Both the position numbers and the translations under genes were made by a program. From the NCBI GenBank assembly GCA_965215605.1, contig OZ244070.1, forward strand, positions 672,001 to 736,000: a stretch of 64,000 bases of DNA. The letters are read 5' to 3'. The notes under the pieces are model-generated. The model was not told the DNA's origin. It made no database searches and saw nothing but the letters and a program-made list of their open reading frames with translations. Below are positions 8,162 through 26,615 of the stretch, in pieces (within the stretch, counting starts at the first letter, position 1; each line of letters begins with the position of its first letter). This DNA is from an uncultured Candidatus Binatia bacterium. GTDB taxonomy: Bacteria; Desulfobacterota; Binatia; UBA9968; JAJDTQ01.

Positions 8162-9523
8162 TCATACCTCGAAGTAGCCGCCGGCGATGGCGTCGTTCCA
8201 CAGCTTGACGGCGGCCGGCGCGACCCCGTGCGGCAACCCCTCCTCTGCCTTCCAGAAGGCGTGCACGCCGGCGCCGAGGTGCGTCAGATGGGTCCTCGGC
8301 GCGGGCCGCATGGCGGCGAACGCGGGCAAGATCACTTCCCGGTAGACATCGGGGCTGTGGTCCCGGCTGTCCTTGGTGATAATGAACAGGAATGGCGGCA
8401 GCGGCGGCGCGTCCGGCCCGGACAGCTCCCGCGGATAGCCCCGGTAACGCTCCATCAACGCCTGGGTCTCGTCGGCATTCATGCCGAGGCGCCCGGCGCT
8501 GACCCTGGCGGCCTCGGTCAACGACGCGGCGATGTCGTGGGTGATCACATATTCCGCCTTGAACTGCGGACGGGCCTTCCCCCGGTCCCAGTTGTCCAGG
8601 ATCTCTTCCATCAGCATGGGCAGTTGCATCAGCGCCGCCGGCCCCTGCTGCCCCAGGGCCTCGGGCCCGGCGTAGCGCGCCAGGTCGCGCCAGGTGCGGA
8701 TGTACAGCTCGTTGAACGGGTCGCTCCGGACGGCGTCGTCGGTGCTCACCCGCTCGAAGCCGGAGACCTTCCCCAGCGAGCCGCTCCAGTTGTCCCGCAT
8801 GGCGCCCACGTGGCCGAAGGGCGTGTGCTCGGTGGCCACCACGCCGACGAAATTGGGCACGCGCTGGGACAGCATGGAGACGAAGGGCCCGCCGGTGGAG
8901 TGGCCTTCGCCGTAGATGGAAAACGTCCCTTCCGGCAGGTGCCTGCGCATGGCCTCCTTCATGCCCTCCTCGAAGGCCACGGGCCACGCCGCCATGCGGT
9001 AGTAGAAGTTGGTGCCGGGTTTGGCCCTGGCGACGGTCCGGGTGCCGTAGCGCGGCCGCATGGACACGTCCCGGGTGACCTCGTACTCGTCGCGCCCGAT
9101 GGGCTCGCCCTGCTTCCAGATGGGCGTGCGGACGCCGCCGTCGGCGTGGATGGTGTCGTCCGGCCAGTCCCGGCTCGCGTCCGGGAAGTAGAAGCGCCCC
9201 GGAAAGGTGCCGCTCAAGACCTTGAAACCGAACTTGCCGGCGGCCAGCGTGGCGACCCGGTCCATGGTCTTGTAGTCGCCCGAGCCGCCGTGGAGCAGAA
9301 AGATCCCCACCCTCCTGCCGTCGGCGCCGCAAGGGATCCTGGCTTCGTCCCGGGGCTGGTAGATCGCCATGCCGAGGTCCCATTCCATACCGAGGGCGTC
9401 GATCCGGACGATATCTTCCTCGACGCTCAACGAGATATCGGGCATGGACAGCACCGCGTCGGAGTCGCGGATGATCTGCTCGCGGGAGACCGCGGCCGGC
9501 AGTTCGATCTGTGAAACGGTCAT
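8162..9523 (-). CDS. Putative alpha/beta-hydrolase fold protein
   Basis: LLHGGSG oxyanion-like motif, GHSTG nucleophile elbow, late Asp (KDSRD) and His (GVH). Confidence 0.6.
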   Translation of the reverse strand: MTVSQIELPAAVSREQIIRDSDAVLSMPDISLSVEEDIVRIDALGMEWDLGMAIYQPRDEARIPCGADGRRVGIFLLHGGSGDYKTMDRVATLAAGKFGFKVLSGTFPGRFYFPDASRDWPDDTIHADGGVRTPIWKQGEPIGRDEYEVTRDVSMRPRYGTRTVARAKPGTNFYYRMAAWPVAFEEGMKEAMRRHLPEGTFSIYGEGHSTGGPFVSMLSQRVPNFVGVVATEHTPFGHVGAMRDNWSGSLGKVSGFERVSTDDAVRSDPFNELYIRTWRDLARYAGPEALGQQGPAALMQLPMLMEEILDNWDRGKARPQFKAEYVITHDIAASLTEAARVSAGRLGMNADETQALMERYRGYPRELSGPDAPPLPPFLFIITKDSRDHSPDVYREVILPAFAAMRPAPRTHLTHLGAGVHAFWKAEEGLPHGVAPAAVKLWNDAIAGGYFEV

Positions 9524-9712
9524 GGGGCTCCTCCCGCAGTCTCTCTACTACAGACGGCCACCGCCTGCCACAGGATTGCCGACGGTCGGGGTTGCCGGCG
9601 GTCGGCCACACGGCCCGGTCCGCGTCGCGTCCCGGAAGTTGTCGTGCCTTGCCGACTACAGGGAATCCTGCGCATAGTGGTCTGCGAGCTTCAGGTGGAG
9701 GACACTGGCGTC

Positions 9713-11212
9713 ATGTTCCGCTTCTCCCCCAATCCCAACAGCGCCCATCGGATCCCTTGGACCGACTGGAGCCCGGCCGCCTTCGACCGCGCCCGCGCCG
9801 AAGGCAAACCGGTGATGCTCTTCCTGGGCGCCTTCTGGTGCGGTATCTGCCAGCGCATGGACGAGACCACCTTCTCCGACACCGAGGTCGTCGCGCTGCT
9901 GAACGCCTACTTCGTCCCGGTGCGGGTGGAGGACGCCCAGCGCCCGGACATCGACGTGCGCTACAACCGCAACGGCTGGCCCACCATCGTGTTCCTGAGC
10001 GCGGAGGGCGACTACCTGGCGAGCGTCAACTACCTTTCACCCCGGGACTTCAGCGACGTGCTCGTGCGGGTCCACGTCGGCTATCAGGAGCGCGCATCTT
10101 CCAGCGCGCCCGGTCCGCCGGCGCCCGCCTCGCCGGCCGCCGACCCGGAGTTGCGACCCGAGGCGGCAAGCGAGATCGCGGGAATCGTCTGGGACCTGGC
10201 CGATCCCGTCCACGGCGGCTACGAAACCGAACGAAAGTTTCCCCACTGCGGGGCCAACGAGCTGCTGTTGCGGCATCATGCGGCCACCGGCGACGCGCGT
10301 TACCTGAACCACGTGCGGCTGACCCTCTACAACATGCGCCTGAGCAAGACCCATGACCCCGAGGGCGGCTTCTTCCGCTACTCATCGAAGCCGGACTGGA
10401 GCGAGCCCCACCACGAGAAGCTGCTGTCCGACCATGCCGGCCTGCTGGACAACGCCCTGCACGTGTTCGAGCTCACCGGCGAAGCCTTCTTCCGGGAGCT
10501 GGCGGAGGAGATCCTGGACTACCTGGACCGGGGCTTCCGCGACGCCGCCGAGCCGTATTTCCACGGCTGCCGCGATTACATCCGCATCACGCCCGGCCGG
10601 GACACCCCTCCGGGGTCCCTGCTCCACGGCAACCGGGGCATGTTCTCCATCACCGATCCCTGGATGTACACCGACGCCAATGCCCGCGCCGTTTCCGCCA
10701 GCCTTCGGGCTGCCCGGACCCTGGGACGGAAGGACTGGAAGGAACGCGCCCTGGAGACGCTGCGATTCCTGCTGGAGCGCTGCTGGGACGACTCCCGCGG
10801 CATGGCCCACTACTTCGACGACGGGCCCCGGTTGCGGGGAGTCCTCACGGACCAGGTCCTCACGGGAAGAGCCCTGGCGGAGGGGTTCGAAGCCACCGGC
10901 GAACGGGTCTTCCTCGACCGCGCCGAAGCGCTGGCGGTGTTCATTCGGACCCGTCTGAACAATCCGGCCGGGGGCTTCTTCGACATCGCGGAGAAAGGGC
11001 CCGCGTTTCTCCAGTATCCCCTGACCCTGGTTGACGGGAACGGCGCCGCGGCGCGTTTCTTCCTGAAGCTCCACGATCTGACGGCGGAGTCGCATCTCCT
11101 CGACGCCGCGCTGTGGGCGTTCAAGTGCTATCACGGCGACTTCACCGACCACGGGGTCCACGCGGCGGAGTATGCCACGGCGCTGGCCGCCTATGCCGAA
11201 GGGGCCATATGA
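9713..11212 (+). CDS. Thioredoxin-domain/(alpha/alpha)6 protein, YyaL/SSP411 (DUF255) family
   Basis: IPWTDW..AFDRARAEGKP, WCGICQRMD, RPDID, GWPT, GGFFRYS, PHHEKLL. Confidence 0.88.
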   Translation: MFRFSPNPNSAHRIPWTDWSPAAFDRARAEGKPVMLFLGAFWCGICQRMDETTFSDTEVVALLNAYFVPVRVEDAQRPDIDVRYNRNGWPTIVFLSAEGDYLASVNYLSPRDFSDVLVRVHVGYQERASSSAPGPPAPASPAADPELRPEAASEIAGIVWDLADPVHGGYETERKFPHCGANELLLRHHAATGDARYLNHVRLTLYNMRLSKTHDPEGGFFRYSSKPDWSEPHHEKLLSDHAGLLDNALHVFELTGEAFFRELAEEILDYLDRGFRDAAEPYFHGCRDYIRITPGRDTPPGSLLHGNRGMFSITDPWMYTDANARAVSASLRAARTLGRKDWKERALETLRFLLERCWDDSRGMAHYFDDGPRLRGVLTDQVLTGRALAEGFEATGERVFLDRAEALAVFIRTRLNNPAGGFFDIAEKGPAFLQYPLTLVDGNGAAARFFLKLHDLTAESHLLDAALWAFKCYHGDFTDHGVHAAEYATALAAYAEGAI

Positions 11213-11276
11213 CGTTTTGCCATTGCCAGGGGAATGTGGAATCATGTGGCCGACTCGGCGAGATTGAGGTGAATCC

Positions 11277-12557
11277 GTGAACCTGACACTGGCGTACCAC
11301 CCGGTGGAGGCCCTCCGTTTCGGCGCATCCACCGGGCTCGACGGCACCACCCTCGACATCGACGTGGATGAGCTTCGCGGGCTGCTGCTCGAGGACGAAG
11401 CGATCGAGGACGTCGCCTTCGAGCGCGTGGCTCCCGGCGAGGACTGCCGCGCCGGACCGGTGTTCGACATCATCGAGCCCCGGGCCAAGGCGGCCGGCTC
11501 CAGCCCCGACTTCCCGGGCATCCTGGGGCCTCCGTTGACCGCCGGCATGGGCACCACCCACGTGCTGTCGGGCATGGCCGTCGCGGTCCTCGACGAGCAC
11601 GCCGCGGGAGGATCGCGGGGCTCCATCGGCCGCGTCCTGGAGATGACCGGACCGGCCGCGGAGGGTTCCTGCTACTCGAAGCTGCACCACCTGGTGGTCA
11701 TCCCGCGCATGGCCCCGGGCAGGGACGGACCGGCGGCCCAGCGGGCGAAGCGGGTGGCCGGTCTCAAGGCTGCCGTCCACCTGGCCCGGGCGGCGGCTTC
11801 GGACGCACCCGCGGAAAGCGTAACCTTCGCCCCGGTGGACCCCGGGCCGCCGGGGCGGCAGGGTCTGCCCCGGGTAGCGTACGTGGGGCAGATCTTCTCC
11901 CGCCAGAGGCGGTCGGAACTGGACGAACCGGTGCTCTACGGCCACAACACCACCGGCATGCTGCCGGTGCTGCTGCATCCGGACGAGTGGCTGGACGGCG
12001 GCGTGGTGACCTCCTACTACACATCCATGGGAGGCGCCGAGACCTACCTCTACCAGAACCATCCCATCATCACCGAGCTCTACCGGAGACACCGCGCGGG
12101 CGAGCTGAACTTCGTCGGCACGGTGGCCAGCATCGCCGGCTCGGACAACACCGACCGCGACCGGAACTGCCGCACCGCCGCCGCCCTGGTGCAATGGGCG
12201 CTGAAGGCCGACGCGGCGGTACTCACCAAGTACGGCGGCGGCGTGCCCCACGCCGACCTGGCGGAGACCGCGCGCTTGCTGGAGTCGGCCGGCATCCGTA
12301 CCTCGGTCATGGTCTCGGACGTGTCGCGGGACCGCCGGGTGGAGTCCGCCCTGCTGTTCAACTTCCCCGAGCTGAACGCCATCGTCTACGGCGGCGGCAA
12401 CGACACCCGGTGGCAGGTGCCGCCGGCCACGCGGGTGATCGCGGCAACGCCGGCCGTGGGCGAACTGTTGGCCGGCGTACGGGAGCTGGGCGCCATGAAC
12501 GTGGCGGGCGTCACCAACCAGCAGGGCGCGTCGCGGCTGCGGGCGGTGGTTTACTAA
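11277..12557 (+). CDS. Glycine/sarcosine/betaine reductase component B subunit (GrdE/GrdG/GrdI-like)
   Basis: DIIEPRAK...FPG, GTTHVLSG, LHPDEWLDG, YQNHPII.ELY..H, LNFVG, AGVTNQQG match the GrdE family layout. Confidence 0.85.
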   Translation: MNLTLAYHPVEALRFGASTGLDGTTLDIDVDELRGLLLEDEAIEDVAFERVAPGEDCRAGPVFDIIEPRAKAAGSSPDFPGILGPPLTAGMGTTHVLSGMAVAVLDEHAAGGSRGSIGRVLEMTGPAAEGSCYSKLHHLVVIPRMAPGRDGPAAQRAKRVAGLKAAVHLARAAASDAPAESVTFAPVDPGPPGRQGLPRVAYVGQIFSRQRRSELDEPVLYGHNTTGMLPVLLHPDEWLDGGVVTSYYTSMGGAETYLYQNHPIITELYRRHRAGELNFVGTVASIAGSDNTDRDRNCRTAAALVQWALKADAAVLTKYGGGVPHADLAETARLLESAGIRTSVMVSDVSRDRRVESALLFNFPELNAIVYGGGNDTRWQVPPATRVIAATPAVGELLAGVRELGAMNVAGVTNQQGASRLRAVVY

Positions 12558-12605
12558 GCGTTACCCGCGGCAGAACCGACACTGCAAGAACGGAGGTCTG
12601 CAACC

Positions 12606-13892
12606 ATGAGGATCGTTCACTACCTCAACCAGTTTTTCGGAGGAATCGGCGGCGAGGAGCAGGCCGGGAGCCCGCCGCGGGAGGTCGAGGGCGCCGTCGG
12701 CCCCGGCCGCCTGCTGGAGCAGACTTTCGGCGAAGAGGCCACCGTCGTCAAAACCGTGGTCTGCGGCGACAACTACGCCGTCGAGCACCAGGACGAGCTG
12801 GTGGTCGCGGTGCTGGATCACGTCCGGGACGCGCAGGCGGACCTGTTCGTGGCAGGGCCGTGTTTCGACGCCGGCCGCTACGGCATGGCGGCGGGCGCCT
12901 TGTGCAGCGCGGTGCAGACGGAGCTCGGCATTCCGGCCGTCACCGCCATGCACGAGGAAAACCCCGGGGTGGACCTCTACCGCGAAGGCCTCTACATCAT
13001 CGACTCCGGAAAGAACGCGGCGAAGATGAAGGAGGTCGTGGGGCGCATGGCCGGACTGGCACGTAAACTGGCAGGGGGAGAGGCCGTCGGCCTGCCCGAA
13101 GAAGAGGGCTACCTGACCCGGGGGCTGATACGGGACCGGTTCGTCGACAAGTCCTCGGCCGAGCGGCTGGTGGACATGGTGCTGGCAAAGGCCCAGGACC
13201 AGCCGTTCGACACCGAGATGCCTGTCACCTCGTTCCAGCCGGTGGCCAAGCCCCGGGGCGTGGACGACATCTCCAAGGCCACGGTGATGCTCATCACTGA
13301 CGGCGGCCTCGTGCCCAAGGGCAACCCGGACAACATCGAGGGCATGGCCGCCACCCGCTGGGGCGCCTACGACATCTCCGGCGACGACGACTTGGCGGGC
13401 GATGACTACGAAATCTCCCACGGCGGCTACGACCCGCGCTTCGTGCAGGCCGACCCCGACCGCCTGGTCCCCCTCGACGCCCTGCGGCAGTTGGAGAGAG
13501 AGGGTGCCGTGGGCAGGATACACGGGGAGTTCCTGTCCACCTCCGGCCTGTCCAACCCCCTTTCCAACACCCGCCGGCTGGGCCGGGAGATGGCCGAGAA
13601 AGTCAAACGCGAGGGGGTCGACGCCGTCATCCTCACCTCCACGTGAGGCACCAGCACTCGCAGCGGCGCTGCGATCACCACCGAGCTGGAAAAGGCCGGC
13701 GTCCCGGTCGTTCAACTGACCTCCGCCCTGCCCATCGCCAAGATGGTGGGCTCCAACCGTGTCGTGTTGGGAACCGGCATCATCCACGTGGCCGGAGACG
13801 CGAACCTGCCGCCCGACGAGGAGAAGGCGCTGCGGCGCAAGCTCGTGGAGGAGGCGCTGGATTCGCTGAAGGCCGAGGGGGGCGCGGACTAA
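12606..13892 (+). CDS. grdB: Glycine/sarcosine/betaine reductase selenoprotein B (GrdB-like), 428 aa with Sec at TGA 13644-13646
   Basis: MRIVHYLNQFFGGIGGEE, CGDNY, AGRYG, HGGYD, PDRLVPLD, VILTST-TGA-GT; GrdB-like sequence (ELEKAGVPVV, VGSNRVV) continues in frame to TAA 13890-13892. Confidence 0.92.
13658..13674 (+). promoter_or_regulatory. Putative bacterial SECIS hairpin
   Basis: TCGCAGC-GGC-GCTGCGA perfect stem with G-containing loop, starting 11 nt after the in-frame TGA. Confidence 0.7.
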
Positions 13893-15079
13893 CCCCCGGC
13901 CGGCTCGAGGCGCGCGAGCACACCCGGCTGCTCGTCGCTCAGAAGGTAGACGTATCCGTTGGGGCCCACCCGGACATCGCGGATCCGGCCGATGACCCCC
14001 TCCAGAATCCGCTCCTCGCGCACCACTCGCTCTCCGTTGAGCTCGAGCCGCGCGAGCAGGCGGAACGCGAGCGCGCCCACCAGCAGGTTGCCGCGCCAGC
14101 CGGGGAACTTGTCACCCTCATAGAACGCCATGCCCGAGGGCGCGATGGATGGCGTCCACTGGTGCAGCGGCTGGGCCATGCCTTCCCTGTGGGTCCCCTC
14201 GCCGATGCGCGTGCCGATCCCGTAGTTCCTGCCGTAGGTGATCACCGGCCAGCCGTAGTTGACCCCGGCCCGGATGATGTTGATCTCGTCACCGCCCTGC
14301 GGGCCGTGCTCATGGGTCCATAGCTCGCCGGTCCGGGGATGGATGGCCGCGCCCTGTATGTTGCGGTTGCCGAGCGTGTGGATTTCGGGCCTGGCGCCGG
14401 ACACGGACAGATAGGGGTTGTCCTTGGGCACGCCGCCATCCTCGGTGAGGCGGATAACGGAACCCGCGTGGTCGCCCGGGTCCTGGGCGCGCGGCCGGCT
14501 GCCCCGGTCCCCCAGGGTCAGGAACACGTGCCCCTTGGCGTCGAACACCACGCGTCCGCCGAAGTGGCGGCCTCCCCACGACTTGGGCAGGGCCCGGAAC
14601 AGGACCTGGACGTCCTTGAGCTGGTGGCCGTCAAGCCGCCCCCTGGCCAGCTCGGTGCCGTAGCCGCCGGTGCCGCTGCCGGCATACGCGAGATAGACCA
14701 GGCGGGTCCGGGAGAAATCCGGATGCAGCGCCACGTCGTGCAGCCCGCCCTGCCGCCTCGCCGCGATGTTTTCGGGAAGACCGGAGATGGGAGCAGGATC
14801 CAGCGTCCCGTCGGCGGCCACGTAACGGAGCCGCCCGGGCCGCTCGGTGACCAGCATCCGCCCGTCGGGCAGGAACGCGAGCGACCAGGGCCGGTCGAGC
14901 CCACGGGTCAGGATACGGACCTGTACGGGGTGCCGCTCCGTCCGTTCCACCATGTCCGCTGCCCCAGCCCCGTACCAGCCGAGGATCAGCACAAGAGCGC
15001 CGGCAACGAGGCGAGGTGACAGGCGTCGGAACCGCGACTGCTGCCGAGTCAGCCTTATACTACCGGTCATCGACATCAC
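13889..15079 (-). CDS. PQQ-dependent sugar dehydrogenase (YliI/Asd-like)
   Basis: PWSLAFLPDG.MLVTERPG, HFGGR, GNRNIQG, HEHGPQGGDEIN, NYGWP, SIAPSG; start uncertain. Confidence 0.92.
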   Translation of the reverse strand: MMSMTGSIRLTRQQSRFRRLSPRLVAGALVLILGWYGAGAADMVERTERHPVQVRILTRGLDRPWSLAFLPDGRMLVTERPGRLRYVAADGTLDPAPISGLPENIAARRQGGLHDVALHPDFSRTRLVYLAYAGSGTGGYGTELARGRLDGHQLKDVQVLFRALPKSWGGRHFGGRVVFDAKGHVFLTLGDRGSRPRAQDPGDHAGSVIRLTEDGGVPKDNPYLSVSGARPEIHTLGNRNIQGAAIHPRTGELWTHEHGPQGGDEINIIRAGVNYGWPVITYGRNYGIGTRIGEGTHREGMAQPLHQWTPSIAPSGMAFYEGDKFPGWRGNLLVGALAFRLLARLELNGERVVREERILEGVIGRIRDVRVGPNGYVYLLSDEQPGVLARLEPAGG

Positions 15080-16324: not shown

Positions 16325-16618
16325 TCAGGCGGTGGCGAACCTCCTGACCTCGACCGGCTCGCGGTCATGCTGCGCGTGCCAGAGGTCGTACTGCATCTGC
16401 TGGGTCAGCCAGCTCTCGGGGCTGCCGCCGAAGGCCTCCGACAACCGGATGGCCATCTCAGGGGATATGCCGAGGCGGCCATTGAGCAGCAGGGACAGCG
16501 TGTTGCGCGATACCGCGAGCCCCTTCGCGGCCTCGGTCACGGTCAGGCCCAGGGGTTCGAGGCACTGGCGCCGGATGAATGCGCCCGGATGGGGCGGATC
16601 GTGCATGAGCATGGGCAT
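16325..16618 (-). CDS. higA: HigA family antitoxin
   Basis: [44 protein letters not shown]. Confidence 0.93.
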
Positions 16619-16625
16619 TGCCTCC

Positions 16626-16904
16626 CTAGTGATAGTCGAGGTAGTCGACGTCGGCGGCGTGACCTTCGTCAAACCGGAAAATGACCCGCCAGTTGGCGCG
16701 TACCGTCACCGCCCAGAAACCGGCATATTCGCCACCGAGCCGATGAAGCCGGAAACCCGGCAGGTTCATGTCGTCCGGGCTCGCCGACGCGTTGAGGCGC
16801 ACGAGGATGTCGCCTACGGTCTCGCGGTGCTCCGGGTGGATGCGCCGCGCGTCGCCACGCTCCATGAAGCGCCGGAGCGTCCGGCTCCTGAAGTTGCGTA
16901 TCAT
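16626..16904 (-). CDS. higB: HigB family (RelE-like) toxin
   Basis: [36 protein letters not shown], terminal DYH. Confidence 0.93.
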
Positions 16905-25113: not shown

Positions 25114-25262
25114 TCAAACCGCTCCCTCTTCGTCGTCGGGCAGCCGCAGCAGGCGTTCGCCACGCCAGACCCGAACGATCCGAACGGCATTCCGATCCCG
25201 TCGATAGATGATCCTGAATGGCGGGTTCGTCAGTTCCCGAAGTGAAGCCTGCCCGAACTCCG
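25114..25262 (-). pseudogene. C-terminal half of a RelE/ParE toxin (N-terminus deleted)
   Basis: PEFGQASLRELTNPPFRIIYR....VRIVRVWRGERLL begins right after the antitoxin stop, with no start codon. Confidence 0.8.
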
Positions 25263-25264
25263 GT

Positions 25265-25528
25265 CTACTTGAGGCCGAGCCGGGATTTCGCTTCCGCCAA
25301 CGAAACCTCGCGTCCCTCTTCGATATCTGACAACCCTTCGACGACCGCCAGCATGAAGGTGCGCTCATCGTCGGCTGCTCCGAATTCTTCGACGGACTGG
25401 ACGACCGCGCCGCCTCGCCCGCGACTGGTGACAAGAACGGGACGGCGAGTTTCTGCGGCATGTTTCACTACGCGGCCGGGGTTGGTTTTCAGGTCGGTCA
25501 GGGGAACGATGTCTTGAGAGAACCTCAC
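25265..25528 (-). CDS. Phd/YefM family antitoxin
   Basis: GTG with AGGAG RBS; DIVPLTDLK...RPVLVTSRGR...GLSDIEEGREVSLAEAK. Confidence 0.88.
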   Translation of the reverse strand: MRFSQDIVPLTDLKTNPGRVVKHAAETRRPVLVTSRGRGGAVVQSVEEFGAADDERTFMLAVVEGLSDIEEGREVSLAEAKSRLGLK

Positions 25529-25563
25529 TCGCGTCTCCTCTATTGGACCTGTTGAACATACGC

Positions 25564-25593
25564 ATAATAGGTACTGTAAGTACATGCTGTCAA
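25564..25593 (-). promoter_or_regulatory. Sigma70 promoter with palindromic operator for the phd gene
   Basis: TTGACA-18 nt-TATTAT enclosing GTAC-N5-GTAC. Confidence 0.65.
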
Positions 25594-25660
25594 TGAGTCT
25601 TCTTCCCGGCACGGTCCGGCGGCCCTCGTGGACCGTCAGCTCTCCGATCTTCGCGTACAA

Positions 25661-25830
25661 AAGCCACTGGCCGAACCAAGACCTTCTACGCCCGTGAAGC
25701 CGTCCTGATGTACCTGGAGGATTTCGAAGACATGTAACCTAGCCGAACAGCGGCTGACCGAGAGCCGCGCCGGCAGATCCGATAGCCTTCCGCTTGAAGA
25801 TGGAATGAAACGCTATGGCATGGAGGAGCG
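25661..25830 (+). pseudogene. Remnant of an RHH/RelB-like (DUF6290-type) antitoxin
   Basis: ATGRTKTFYAREAVLMYLEDFEDM, a frameshift at about 25735 (ATG TAA C), then LAEQRLTESRAGRS..LPLE..MKRYGME; no N-terminus. Confidence 0.7.
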
Positions 25831-25991
25831 AGCTTGACCGAAGCCTGACGCCCGATGGGGCTTGTCGCGTGCGGCTGCTCCTACCAAGGCCGCACAAGAA
25901 GGCCTTCCGTTTGAGCCGCTGGTCCGGCTTGACATAGCGCCCTACATCTAGTCATATTATTAGCTAAGCTTCGACTCAGGGAGGCCAAACC

Positions 25992-26222
25992 ATGTCCGTG
26001 GTCAACGTCCATCAAGCCAAGACTCAGCTTTCTCGCCTGTTGGCGCAGGTCGAGGCAGGCGAAGATGTGGTCATCGCGCGGCGGGGTGAGCCGGTCGCGC
26101 GGCTCGTGCGTTGCAACCCGCGCGGCAAGCGGCAGTTTGGCGCCATGCGAGGACAAATCGTGGTGGACGACAGCATCCTCGATCCACTGCCCGAGGAAGA
26201 ATTGGCAGCTTGGGAGAGCTGA
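25992..26222 (+). CDS. Phd/YefM family antitoxin (VapB role)
   Basis: VNVHQAKTQLSRLL..VEAGEDVVIARRGEPVARLV; upstream GGAGG. Confidence 0.92.
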   Translation: MSVVNVHQAKTQLSRLLAQVEAGEDVVIARRGEPVARLVRCNPRGKRQFGAMRGQIVVDDSILDPLPEEELAAWES

Positions 26223-26228
26223 ATCGGC

Positions 26229-26615
26229 ATGAGGCTCCTTCTCGACACCCATGCTTTCATGTGGTGGCTGGCAGGCAACAGGCGGCTCTCCTCAGCGGCT
26301 CGTCGCGCAGTGGACGACAGTTCGAACGACGTGGTGGTCAGCGCGGCCACGGCTTGGGAAATCACTACCAAGCACCGCGTCGGCAAACTACAGGAAGCGG
26401 CGGCCGTCGCTCGCGACGTGACCGCCAGCATCGCCAGCCAGGGCTTCGAGGAACTGGCAATCACCGTTCAAGACGCGGAACGCGCAGGCCGATTGCCCGG
26501 CGCACACCGCGATCCTTTCGATCGAATGCTGATAGCCCAGGCATTGACGCACGACTTGACCGTTGTCTCAATCGACTCCGTGTTCGACAGGTACGGCGTC
26601 CCTCGTCTATGGTGA
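26229..26615 (+). CDS. vapC: PIN-domain toxin
   Basis: LLLDTH, SAATAWEI, HRDPFDRMLIAQA. Confidence 0.93.
   Translation: MRLLLDTHAFMWWLAGNRRLSSAARRAVDDSSNDVVVSAATAWEITTKHRVGKLQEAAAVARDVTASIASQGFEELAITVQDAERAGRLPGAHRDPFDRMLIAQALTHDLTVVSIDSVFDRYGVPRLW

Follow-up and report, generated by a model that had tools for sequence, protein, structure and literature searches.

The chemistry of glycine reductase is considered to belong to anaerobes and to be tied to acetyl phosphate, the acetyl-phosphate-forming cysteine being carried by GrdD. Its component B pairs a selenoprotein B of the GrdB, GrdF or GrdH type with an alpha subunit (GrdE, GrdG or GrdI), and the role of the two cysteines in the UxxCxxC site of protein B is unsettled. 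General background on the family is available in PMC10298544, PMC3091704, PMC12366334 and bioRxiv 2022.07.06.499078; the family motif is given as UxxC in the relevant part of PMC13188914, and the passage of PMC6778437 on a CxxC-less grdB uses this absence to call the gene a likely pseudogene. Two further systems are close enough to be instructive. The far operon of Cloacibacillus porcorum, as described in the text of PMC10838667, is induced by its substrate fluoroacetate and encodes a FarB without CxxC after the selenocysteine and a FarE without pyruvoyl cysteines, with FarBE proposed to feed a complete GrdA/C system. D-proline reductase (PrdB and PrdA with PrdC) provides the model for cysteine-resolved cleavage of a selenoether without acetyl phosphate, with PrdC as the reductant in the account of PMC3091704. 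A search of the openly accessible literature recovered no paper on a branch with a UxxSxxS site, and the term 'UxxSxxS' was absent from the matching papers.

We analyzed a stretch of 64,000 nucleotides from an uncultured Candidatus Binatia bacterium (the window), in which an initial annotation had proposed a hidden selenoprotein B with serines in place of both cysteines. The relevant features are:

9713..11212, plus strand: DUF255 / YyaL-SSP411-like protein of 499 aa, with an N-terminal thioredoxin-like domain and a helical barrel (Pfam PF03190, PF13899)
11217..11245, plus strand: sigma-70-like promoter match between the DUF255 and alpha genes (a consensus match only; 1 found against 0.1 expected in shuffles)
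11277..12557, plus strand: GrdE/G/I-like alpha subunit of component B, 426 aa (PF09338 at 241 bits; below the GrdG and FarE cut-offs)
12606..13892, plus strand: GrdB-family beta subunit, selenoprotein B, 428 aa, with predicted Sec347 (profiles, conservation, codon statistics)
12861..12863, plus strand: codon of Cys86 (GPCF for GPAF), diagnostic of the branch and candidate relocated resolving cysteine (alignments, profile comparison)
13644..13646, plus strand: UGA, predicted selenocysteine 347 (selenocysteine machinery over cut-off in the genome; TGA in 52/52 loci)
13653..13664, plus strand: Ser350 and Ser353, in place of both UxxCxxC cysteines (AGY in 52/52 loci, AGC in 52/52)
13659..13673, plus strand: SECIS hairpin with a 6-pair stem and a 3-nt G-G-N loop, overlapping codons 352-356 (comparative covariation)
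13889..15079, minus strand: convergent gene of the glucose/sorbosone dehydrogenase family

The beta protein matches TIGR01918 over residues 2-424 with 490 bits against a cut-off of 65 and Pfam PF07355 with 451 bits against 22, and is 47% identical to the annotated GrdF of Peptoclostridium acidaminophilum and 40% to the GrdH of Enterococcus gilvus. It misses the specific NCBIfam cut-offs for GrdB (447 of 602 bits), GrdF (486 of 800) and GrdH (444 of 775), and the GrdB and GrdF motifs, as published in the pertinent part of PMC9751293, both fail in it while the controls pass. The PrdB model TIGR04483 reaches 79 bits against a cut-off of 300; of the two domains of the beta protein, the C-terminal one is homologous to PrdB. 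PrdB itself, unlike the beta protein, is a single-domain protein with a UxxC site that needs the pyruvoyl subunit PrdA. A PF09338 alpha-subunit gene adjoins the beta gene, and both GrdA with a CxxU site and GrdC are encoded in the same genome. Classified by these profiles and motifs, the protein is a member of the selenoprotein B family distinct from GrdB, GrdF, GrdH and PrdB and, going by its alpha subunit (138 bits against the FarE cut-off of 675), also from FarBE.

With the GrdB, GrdF and GrdH systems it shares full-length homology, the STUG site, the position of the SECIS element, an alpha gene upstream and the presence of GrdA (CxxU) and GrdC in the genome. In contrast to them, it has the UxxSxxS site, has gained Cys86 and lost Cys96, and lies under all three specific cut-offs; the alpha subunit is devoid of pyruvoyl cysteines, GrdD was not found, GrdC is tail-less with a His for Gln in its E-x-(H/Q)-N-P motif, a DUF255 gene lies nearby instead of trxA/trxB, and the host lineage is described as aerobic. 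The losses of the CxxC and of the pyruvoyl cysteines are the same two as in FarB and FarE (NF053623; FarB and FarE as described in the text of PMC10838667); unlike in the far operon, no radical-SAM or MFS gene (farA, farC) recurs beside the cassette.

The beta gene starts with an ATG at 12606, preceded by GGAGG at 12592-12596, and under translation table 11 ends in ...ILTST followed by the TGA at 13644-13646. Public gene calls stop at residue 346, and 117 of the 120 best database matches cover at most 81% of the protein because gene callers end at the UGA. The frame nevertheless stays open for 81 codons past the TGA, running through GTSTRSGAAITTELEKAGVPVVQ...VGSNRVV... up to the TAA at 13890-13892; the convergent gene at 13889-15079 has its own stop, a TAG on the minus strand, at 13889-13891, so that the two stop codons overlap. 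With the TGA read as selenocysteine the site becomes STUGTSTRSG, in which the UGA is codon 347 and the codons of both serines are AGC (13653-55 and 13662-64). The read-through part is homologous to the C-termini of GrdB, GrdF and GrdH, and each of the 30 best matches in 41 relatives shows a single TGA at the codon 347 site together with an extension of 77-103 codons. In 51 loci compared with the window, the 70 codons after the TGA show 1069 synonymous and 510 non-synonymous codon differences, the same excess as in the part before it (1279 and 596). The hidden read-through frame, the overlap of its stop codon with that of the convergent gene (at 13889-13892), the AGC serines and the conservation of the frame beyond the TGA in close homologues, which the initial annotation had claimed or proposed to check, all hold, and the serine codons are moreover AGC in 52/52 loci. 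The possibility of an assembly error or a dead gene was rejected on the basis of conservation across relatives, loci and genomes of the order.

The survey for selA, selB, selC and selD that had been suggested was carried out on the host genome, which is 97% complete: tRNA-Sec (selC), selB, selA and selD are all found over their cut-offs, and selD itself contains one TGA. ARAGORN additionally calls a second tRNA-SeC at C1:2086515-2086611, which is absent from the Rfam tRNA-Sec search and has the look of a palindromic repeat. The SECIS hairpin begins 12 bases downstream of the UGA. Single-sequence folding of the hairpin is unremarkable (z -0.92), and the case for it is therefore comparative. In 32 chosen sequences 96% of the cells in its stem are paired, 9 cells are changed on both sides, none of 500 shuffles pairs as highly and slid controls give 13-58%, figures that are inflated by kinship and refer to a structure drawn from the same 32 sequences; RNAalifold recovers the same stem. 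The second serine codon (Ser353) pairs inside the stem, and the change from Cys to Ser at +6 is compensated there, with a U-A pair in cysteine genes and an A-U pair in serine genes. The paired Ala codon at +8 is GCT in 52/52 loci, against a background of 5%. Taken with the profiles and the conserved site, we strongly infer that UGA347 is a selenocysteine codon, i.e. that this is a selenoprotein B with a conserved UxxSxxS site.

To place this site among its homologues we fetched 73 loci from GTDB genomes, 72 of which are readable at the selenocysteine position. The survey for UxxSxxS that had been proposed gave a uniform result at close range, with all 52 loci at 60% identity or more carrying UxxSxxS; the remaining readable loci comprise 17 with UxxCxxS, 2 with UxxCxxC and 1 with UxxSxxG, and a second gene in one locus has UxxSxxC. 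A quick tree with 75 rows unites the UxxSxxS proteins in a single branch (SH-aLRT 100, stem 0.88) that excludes the annotated GrdF, GrdH and GrdB-motif references. Its members are mostly labeled Candidatus Binatia or delta-proteobacteria, with a few from SAR202/Dehalococcoidia and Nitrospinota. Searched as DNA, the exact UxxSxxS pattern is found in 90 of the order's 123 genomes and in all 27 others of the genus (reversed control 0); hence a branch devoid of both cysteines is kept by most genomes of an order. Across 401 genomes of the phylum that contains the clostridia the cysteine pattern matches 127 and the serine pattern, restricted to AGY serines, matches none. A metagenome sample, in which 72 of 80 loci could be scored, contains 28 loci of the UxxSxxS branch; the 44 other GrdB-family genes in it all keep the second Cys, while the first is replaced in 24 (Ser in 13, Gly in 8, Asp in 3). 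Replacement of the first cysteine is thus frequent, while the lack of both is for the most part restricted to the UxxSxxS branch.

Several more distant homologues deserve mention. The short proteins P0254, P0268 and P0228, which have neither the N-terminal domain nor the UGA break, carry CxxSxxS, CxxSxxA and TxxGxxS at the site and, as aligned, are other CxxC losses. Four longer proteins of 774-798 aa (P0134, P0145, P0164, P0220) match the beta protein with their C-terminal part, P0164 being an alpha-beta fusion. The UxxSxxG gene lies in an alpha-beta-grdC-grdA operon (L159:1294-6829) of a genome with no GrdD over cut-off, and its hairpin retains the pairing with different bases.

The most conspicuous change elsewhere in the beta protein is at residue 86, which is Cys in 50/50 proteins of the branch and Ala in 27/27 others, whereas Cys96, present in the same 27/27, is lost in the branch. 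Among representatives clustered at the 50% level, Cys86 is found in 10/10 at 58% identity or more and in 5/118 below; in the metagenome loci it is found in 28/28 of the branch and 1/44 of the others. This correlation with UxxSxxS amounts to one evolutionary event. Two exceptions lie outside the branch, namely a gene with Cys86 and UxxCxxC (L192) and the UxxSxxG gene (L159) with Ala86; L192 is the only outside Cys86 gene that yielded DNA, and there the CxxC is kept. A DCMF protein with Cys86 (P0214) was considered as independent support and set aside, being from another locus than the CxxC-less gene discussed in that part of PMC6778437.

An AlphaFold model of the beta protein (pLDDT 94.6; pTM 0.68, or 0.92 for the C domain alone, so that the domain arrangement is unsure) shows two alpha/beta domains with strands and helices in the same order. 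Local hhalign comparison of the N-terminal and C-terminal halves sets C86 opposite U347 and R91 opposite R352 with a score of 24.4 (E 0.0045), above all 40 block shuffles (maximum 23.0), albeit at a weak probability of 7.7% and with nothing in global mode. Both domains retrieve CheY/LacI-type folds, which are common, and the two lists of 50 top fold matches have 18 entries in common. The best fold matches (Z 10.9, rmsd 2.9, 124 aligned; Z 9.9, rmsd 3.2, 126 aligned) are tied with many CheY/LacI-type domains. Among solved structures the best sequence match of the beta protein has an E-value of 0.1; no solved relative was recovered by sequence for beta or alpha, or by fold above the level of common folds, and no racemase-type fold is among the matches listed, which excludes nothing. 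Given the profile pairing of the halves, the same order of elements and the common folds, Cys86 probably corresponds, in the twin domain, to Sec347 and is a candidate for the resolving cysteine. With Cys86 gained, the beta protein does have a cysteine at a candidate redox position.

The novelty claimed for the site by the initial annotation is limited, FarB having been reported without a CxxC in the cited text of PMC10838667 and single-cysteine variants being common. Its proposal of a different redox chemistry or turnover route is a reasonable one, backed by Cys86, the DUF255 gene and the absence of a pyruvoyl site and of GrdD; the surprise is smaller because a CxxC-less protein B is already in print, the first Cys is often replaced and Cys86 has been gained.

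The alpha gene adjoins the beta gene in 49/52 loci. At the pyruvoyl-forming site (about 12009-12047) no Cys occurs in the aligned block of 44 alpha subunits of the branch, as against two cysteines each in the annotated GrdG and two GrdE-like references; so neither a pyruvoyl group nor a Schiff base is expected. The clade has its own cysteines at positions 57 and 298, each in 43/44 members. A fourth alpha gene of the host genome (C1:2097374-2098675, minus strand; L095:7375-8676) has no adjoining beta gene.

Together with a DUF255 gene, alpha and beta constitute a conserved unit of three genes, the only ones to recur across lineages. The DUF255 gene lies within 6 kb in 37/52 UxxSxxS loci, or 34/41 of those with full upstream DNA, and its order and orientation vary among records labeled Binatia, SAR202 and Nitrospinota. 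Its CxxC (codons at 9839-9850 in the window, where the ORF finder places the start at 9644) is present in 35/35. Of 33 related genomes that encode the UxxSxxS protein, 32 also contain a member of the subfamily, compared with 0 of 8 in which the gene is missing, these kin not being independent. Like YyaL, SSP411 and SPATA20, the protein combines a thioredoxin-like CxxC domain with a barrel (PDB 7tkv, E 6.5e-29); unlike them, it belongs to a shorter subfamily of about 500 aa, the genomes carrying a longer paralog as well. No function of the DUF255 family was found in our literature search. Neither trxA, trxB nor a betaine transporter lies near any of the 52 loci, and the neighbors give no clue to the substrate. 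Other recurrent neighbors (a peptide-binding protein, a molybdoenzyme, a ring-hydroxylating dioxygenase) are confined to sub-lineages, and the convergent dehydrogenase gene reflects local synteny only, since the 16/52 loci that have it near the cassette are all close relatives. On the minus strand of the window, divergent from the DUF255 gene, is a 453-aa ORF (8162-9523) without Pfam or NCBIfam match, and a similar-looking ORF is seen near the UxxCxxS locus of the host genome. Regions 16325-16904 and 25114-26615 hold several small gene pairs that resemble toxin-antitoxin systems from the look of their translations only.

The further components of the system are dispersed. GrdA (CxxU) and GrdC of the host genome are encoded together, 1.5 Mb from the window cassette, as a grdC-grdA pair without grdD (C1 about 2160254-2162262, minus strand; L091:8258-10263). 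Operons that unite grdA and grdC with the alpha-beta pair are found in 3/52 loci from separate lineages (L134, L138, L156) and also in G029, and GrdC is over its cut-off in 32/33 genomes with the UxxSxxS gene. The GrdA and GrdC of the host are closer to the versions from UxxCxxS operons (57-70%) than to those from UxxSxxS operons (40-50%). GrdD was recovered in 0/41 relatives and 0/123 genomes of the order, a positive-control genome scoring 592 bits, and profile, tblastn and custom-profile searches of the 97% complete host genome gave none. A divergent or split GrdD was sought with full and C-terminal profiles from 4 references and rejected (best E 0.11), as were weak NF040747 matches in 19/41 relatives, which cover only positions 112-227 and which we take to be PlsX-like. 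None of the 30 GrdC proteins compared has the C-terminal tail that is present in 3/3 GrdD-linked references, and in all 30 the Gln of E-x-(H/Q)-N-P is replaced by His, which may mean that the acyl-transfer site has changed; these features fit a real loss of GrdD. Acetate kinase has no match in the host genome and is present in 17/41 relatives.

On the best reading of these sequences, alpha and beta would form the substrate-binding component B of a distinct GrdD-less selenoreductase branch that uses no Schiff base and makes no textbook acetyl phosphate. Tentatively, with a probability of about 0.45, we propose that this component B directs its selenolate at a pre-activated carboxymethyl substrate and passes the C2 unit via GrdA to a GrdD-less GrdC, Cys86/DUF255 protecting or re-reducing the selenocysteine. 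Following the chemistry of the family, the Sec347 selenolate would attack the alpha carbon of an X-CH2-COO- substrate, the leaving group being one with no need of a Schiff base (an onium N or S, or a halide, as in betaine reductase and FarBE); the selenocysteine of GrdA would then take over the carboxymethyl group and deliver it to GrdC. Two elements would be new: protection or re-reduction of Sec347 may have moved from the local CxxC to Cys86, at the matching position of the twin N-terminal domain, and electrons may come from the CxxC of the DUF255 protein, encoded where trxA stands in clostridial operons. With GrdD missing, the C2 unit would probably not be released as acetyl phosphate, and the simplest guess is that the thiolase/FabH-like GrdC transfers it to CoA. 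With Cys86 and the DUF255 partner, 'different chemistry' becomes two specific claims, and the occurrence of a form without GrdD in bacteria that are described as aerobic hints at a substrate and a product yet to be recognized. In its most far-reaching version, which we consider speculative, the proposal would be of a widespread selenoreductase of an aerobic lineage, with Cys86 as a relocated resolver re-reduced by a dedicated DUF255/SPATA20-type thioredoxin, a GrdD-less GrdC producing acetyl-CoA and a new onium or halogenated substrate, in bacteria of sponges, soil, groundwater and the ocean. If true, this would give the DUF255 family its first biochemical role and provide a natural test of the function of the UxxCxxC cysteines.

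A less likely alternative is a route like that of D-proline reductase, wherein Sec347 attacks, Cys86 cleaves the selenoether with release of the reduced product, and the resulting bond between Sec347 and Cys86 is reduced by the CxxC of the DUF255 protein, leaving GrdA and GrdC dispensable. The genomic association with DUF255 (37/52 loci adjacent, against 3/52 for grdA/grdC) speaks for it, as do the resemblance of the host GrdA and GrdC to the partners of the UxxCxxS paralog and the precedent of PrdB, resolved by a cysteine with PrdC as reductant in the description of PMC3091704. However, GrdC is retained in 32/33 genomes with the gene, separate lineages have operons complete with grdC and grdA, and the route presupposes that Cys86 lies close to Sec347.

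It is rather unlikely that we are dealing with the conventional protein B of a betaine, sarcosine or glycine reductase, in which the cysteines were dispensable and the serines a frozen accident, the second being locked by the SECIS stem. The replacement of the first Cys by Ser, Gly or Asp in 24/44 other genes, the pairing of the second Ser codon within the stem and the substrate-induced operon of the CxxC-less FarB (PMC10838667, as described there) all speak for this reading, but the protein lies far under the GrdB, GrdF and GrdH cut-offs and fails the published motifs, and the pyruvoyl site that is needed for glycine and sarcosine is missing from its alpha subunit. The 52 loci also have neither the betaine transporter nor trxA or trxB nearby, and none has the first Cys restored, though one base change suffices.

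We consider it improbable that the main function of the complex is that of a selenium-dependent peroxidase or of redox repair in an aerobe, with the use of Sec347, Cys86 and the thioredoxin domain of DUF255. Clostridial GrdB is said, in work attributed to Grobe and dated 2007, to have peroxidase activity, and a match to heme-copper oxidase subunit I in the host genome reaches 637 bits, just under the cut-off. The Binatota are described as aerobic in PMC8262859, whose main text mentions neither grd nor glycine, betaine or seleno. Against a peroxidase stand the 426-residue alpha subunit kept alongside in 49/52 loci and the retention of GrdA and GrdC, as well as the maintenance in one genome of three paralogous B pairs that differ in their pocket motifs, which suggests different substrates. 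Finally, a true stop at the UGA, with a truncated or dead gene, agrees with the public gene calls ending at residue 346 and with the likely-pseudogene verdict on the CxxC-less grdB in that passage of PMC6778437, but is very improbable in view of the complete selenocysteine machinery, the covarying hairpin, the purifying selection on the frame and the exact pattern in 90/123 genomes of the order.

The three B pairs of the host genome, with UxxCxxC, UxxCxxS and UxxSxxS sites, are a ready comparison set. The UxxCxxC pair (C1:1888258; L092:8259-9557) is beside TctC/TctA transporter genes, and its alpha subunit, like that of the UxxCxxS pair (C1:3430935, minus strand; L093:9611-10936), is without pyruvoyl cysteines. 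The same genome encodes a single-domain PrdB-like protein (C1 about 369250-370040; L094:7251-8043), whose gene has an in-frame TGA in a UxxC motif and adjoins a cupin gene and a gene of the ornithine cyclodeaminase family.
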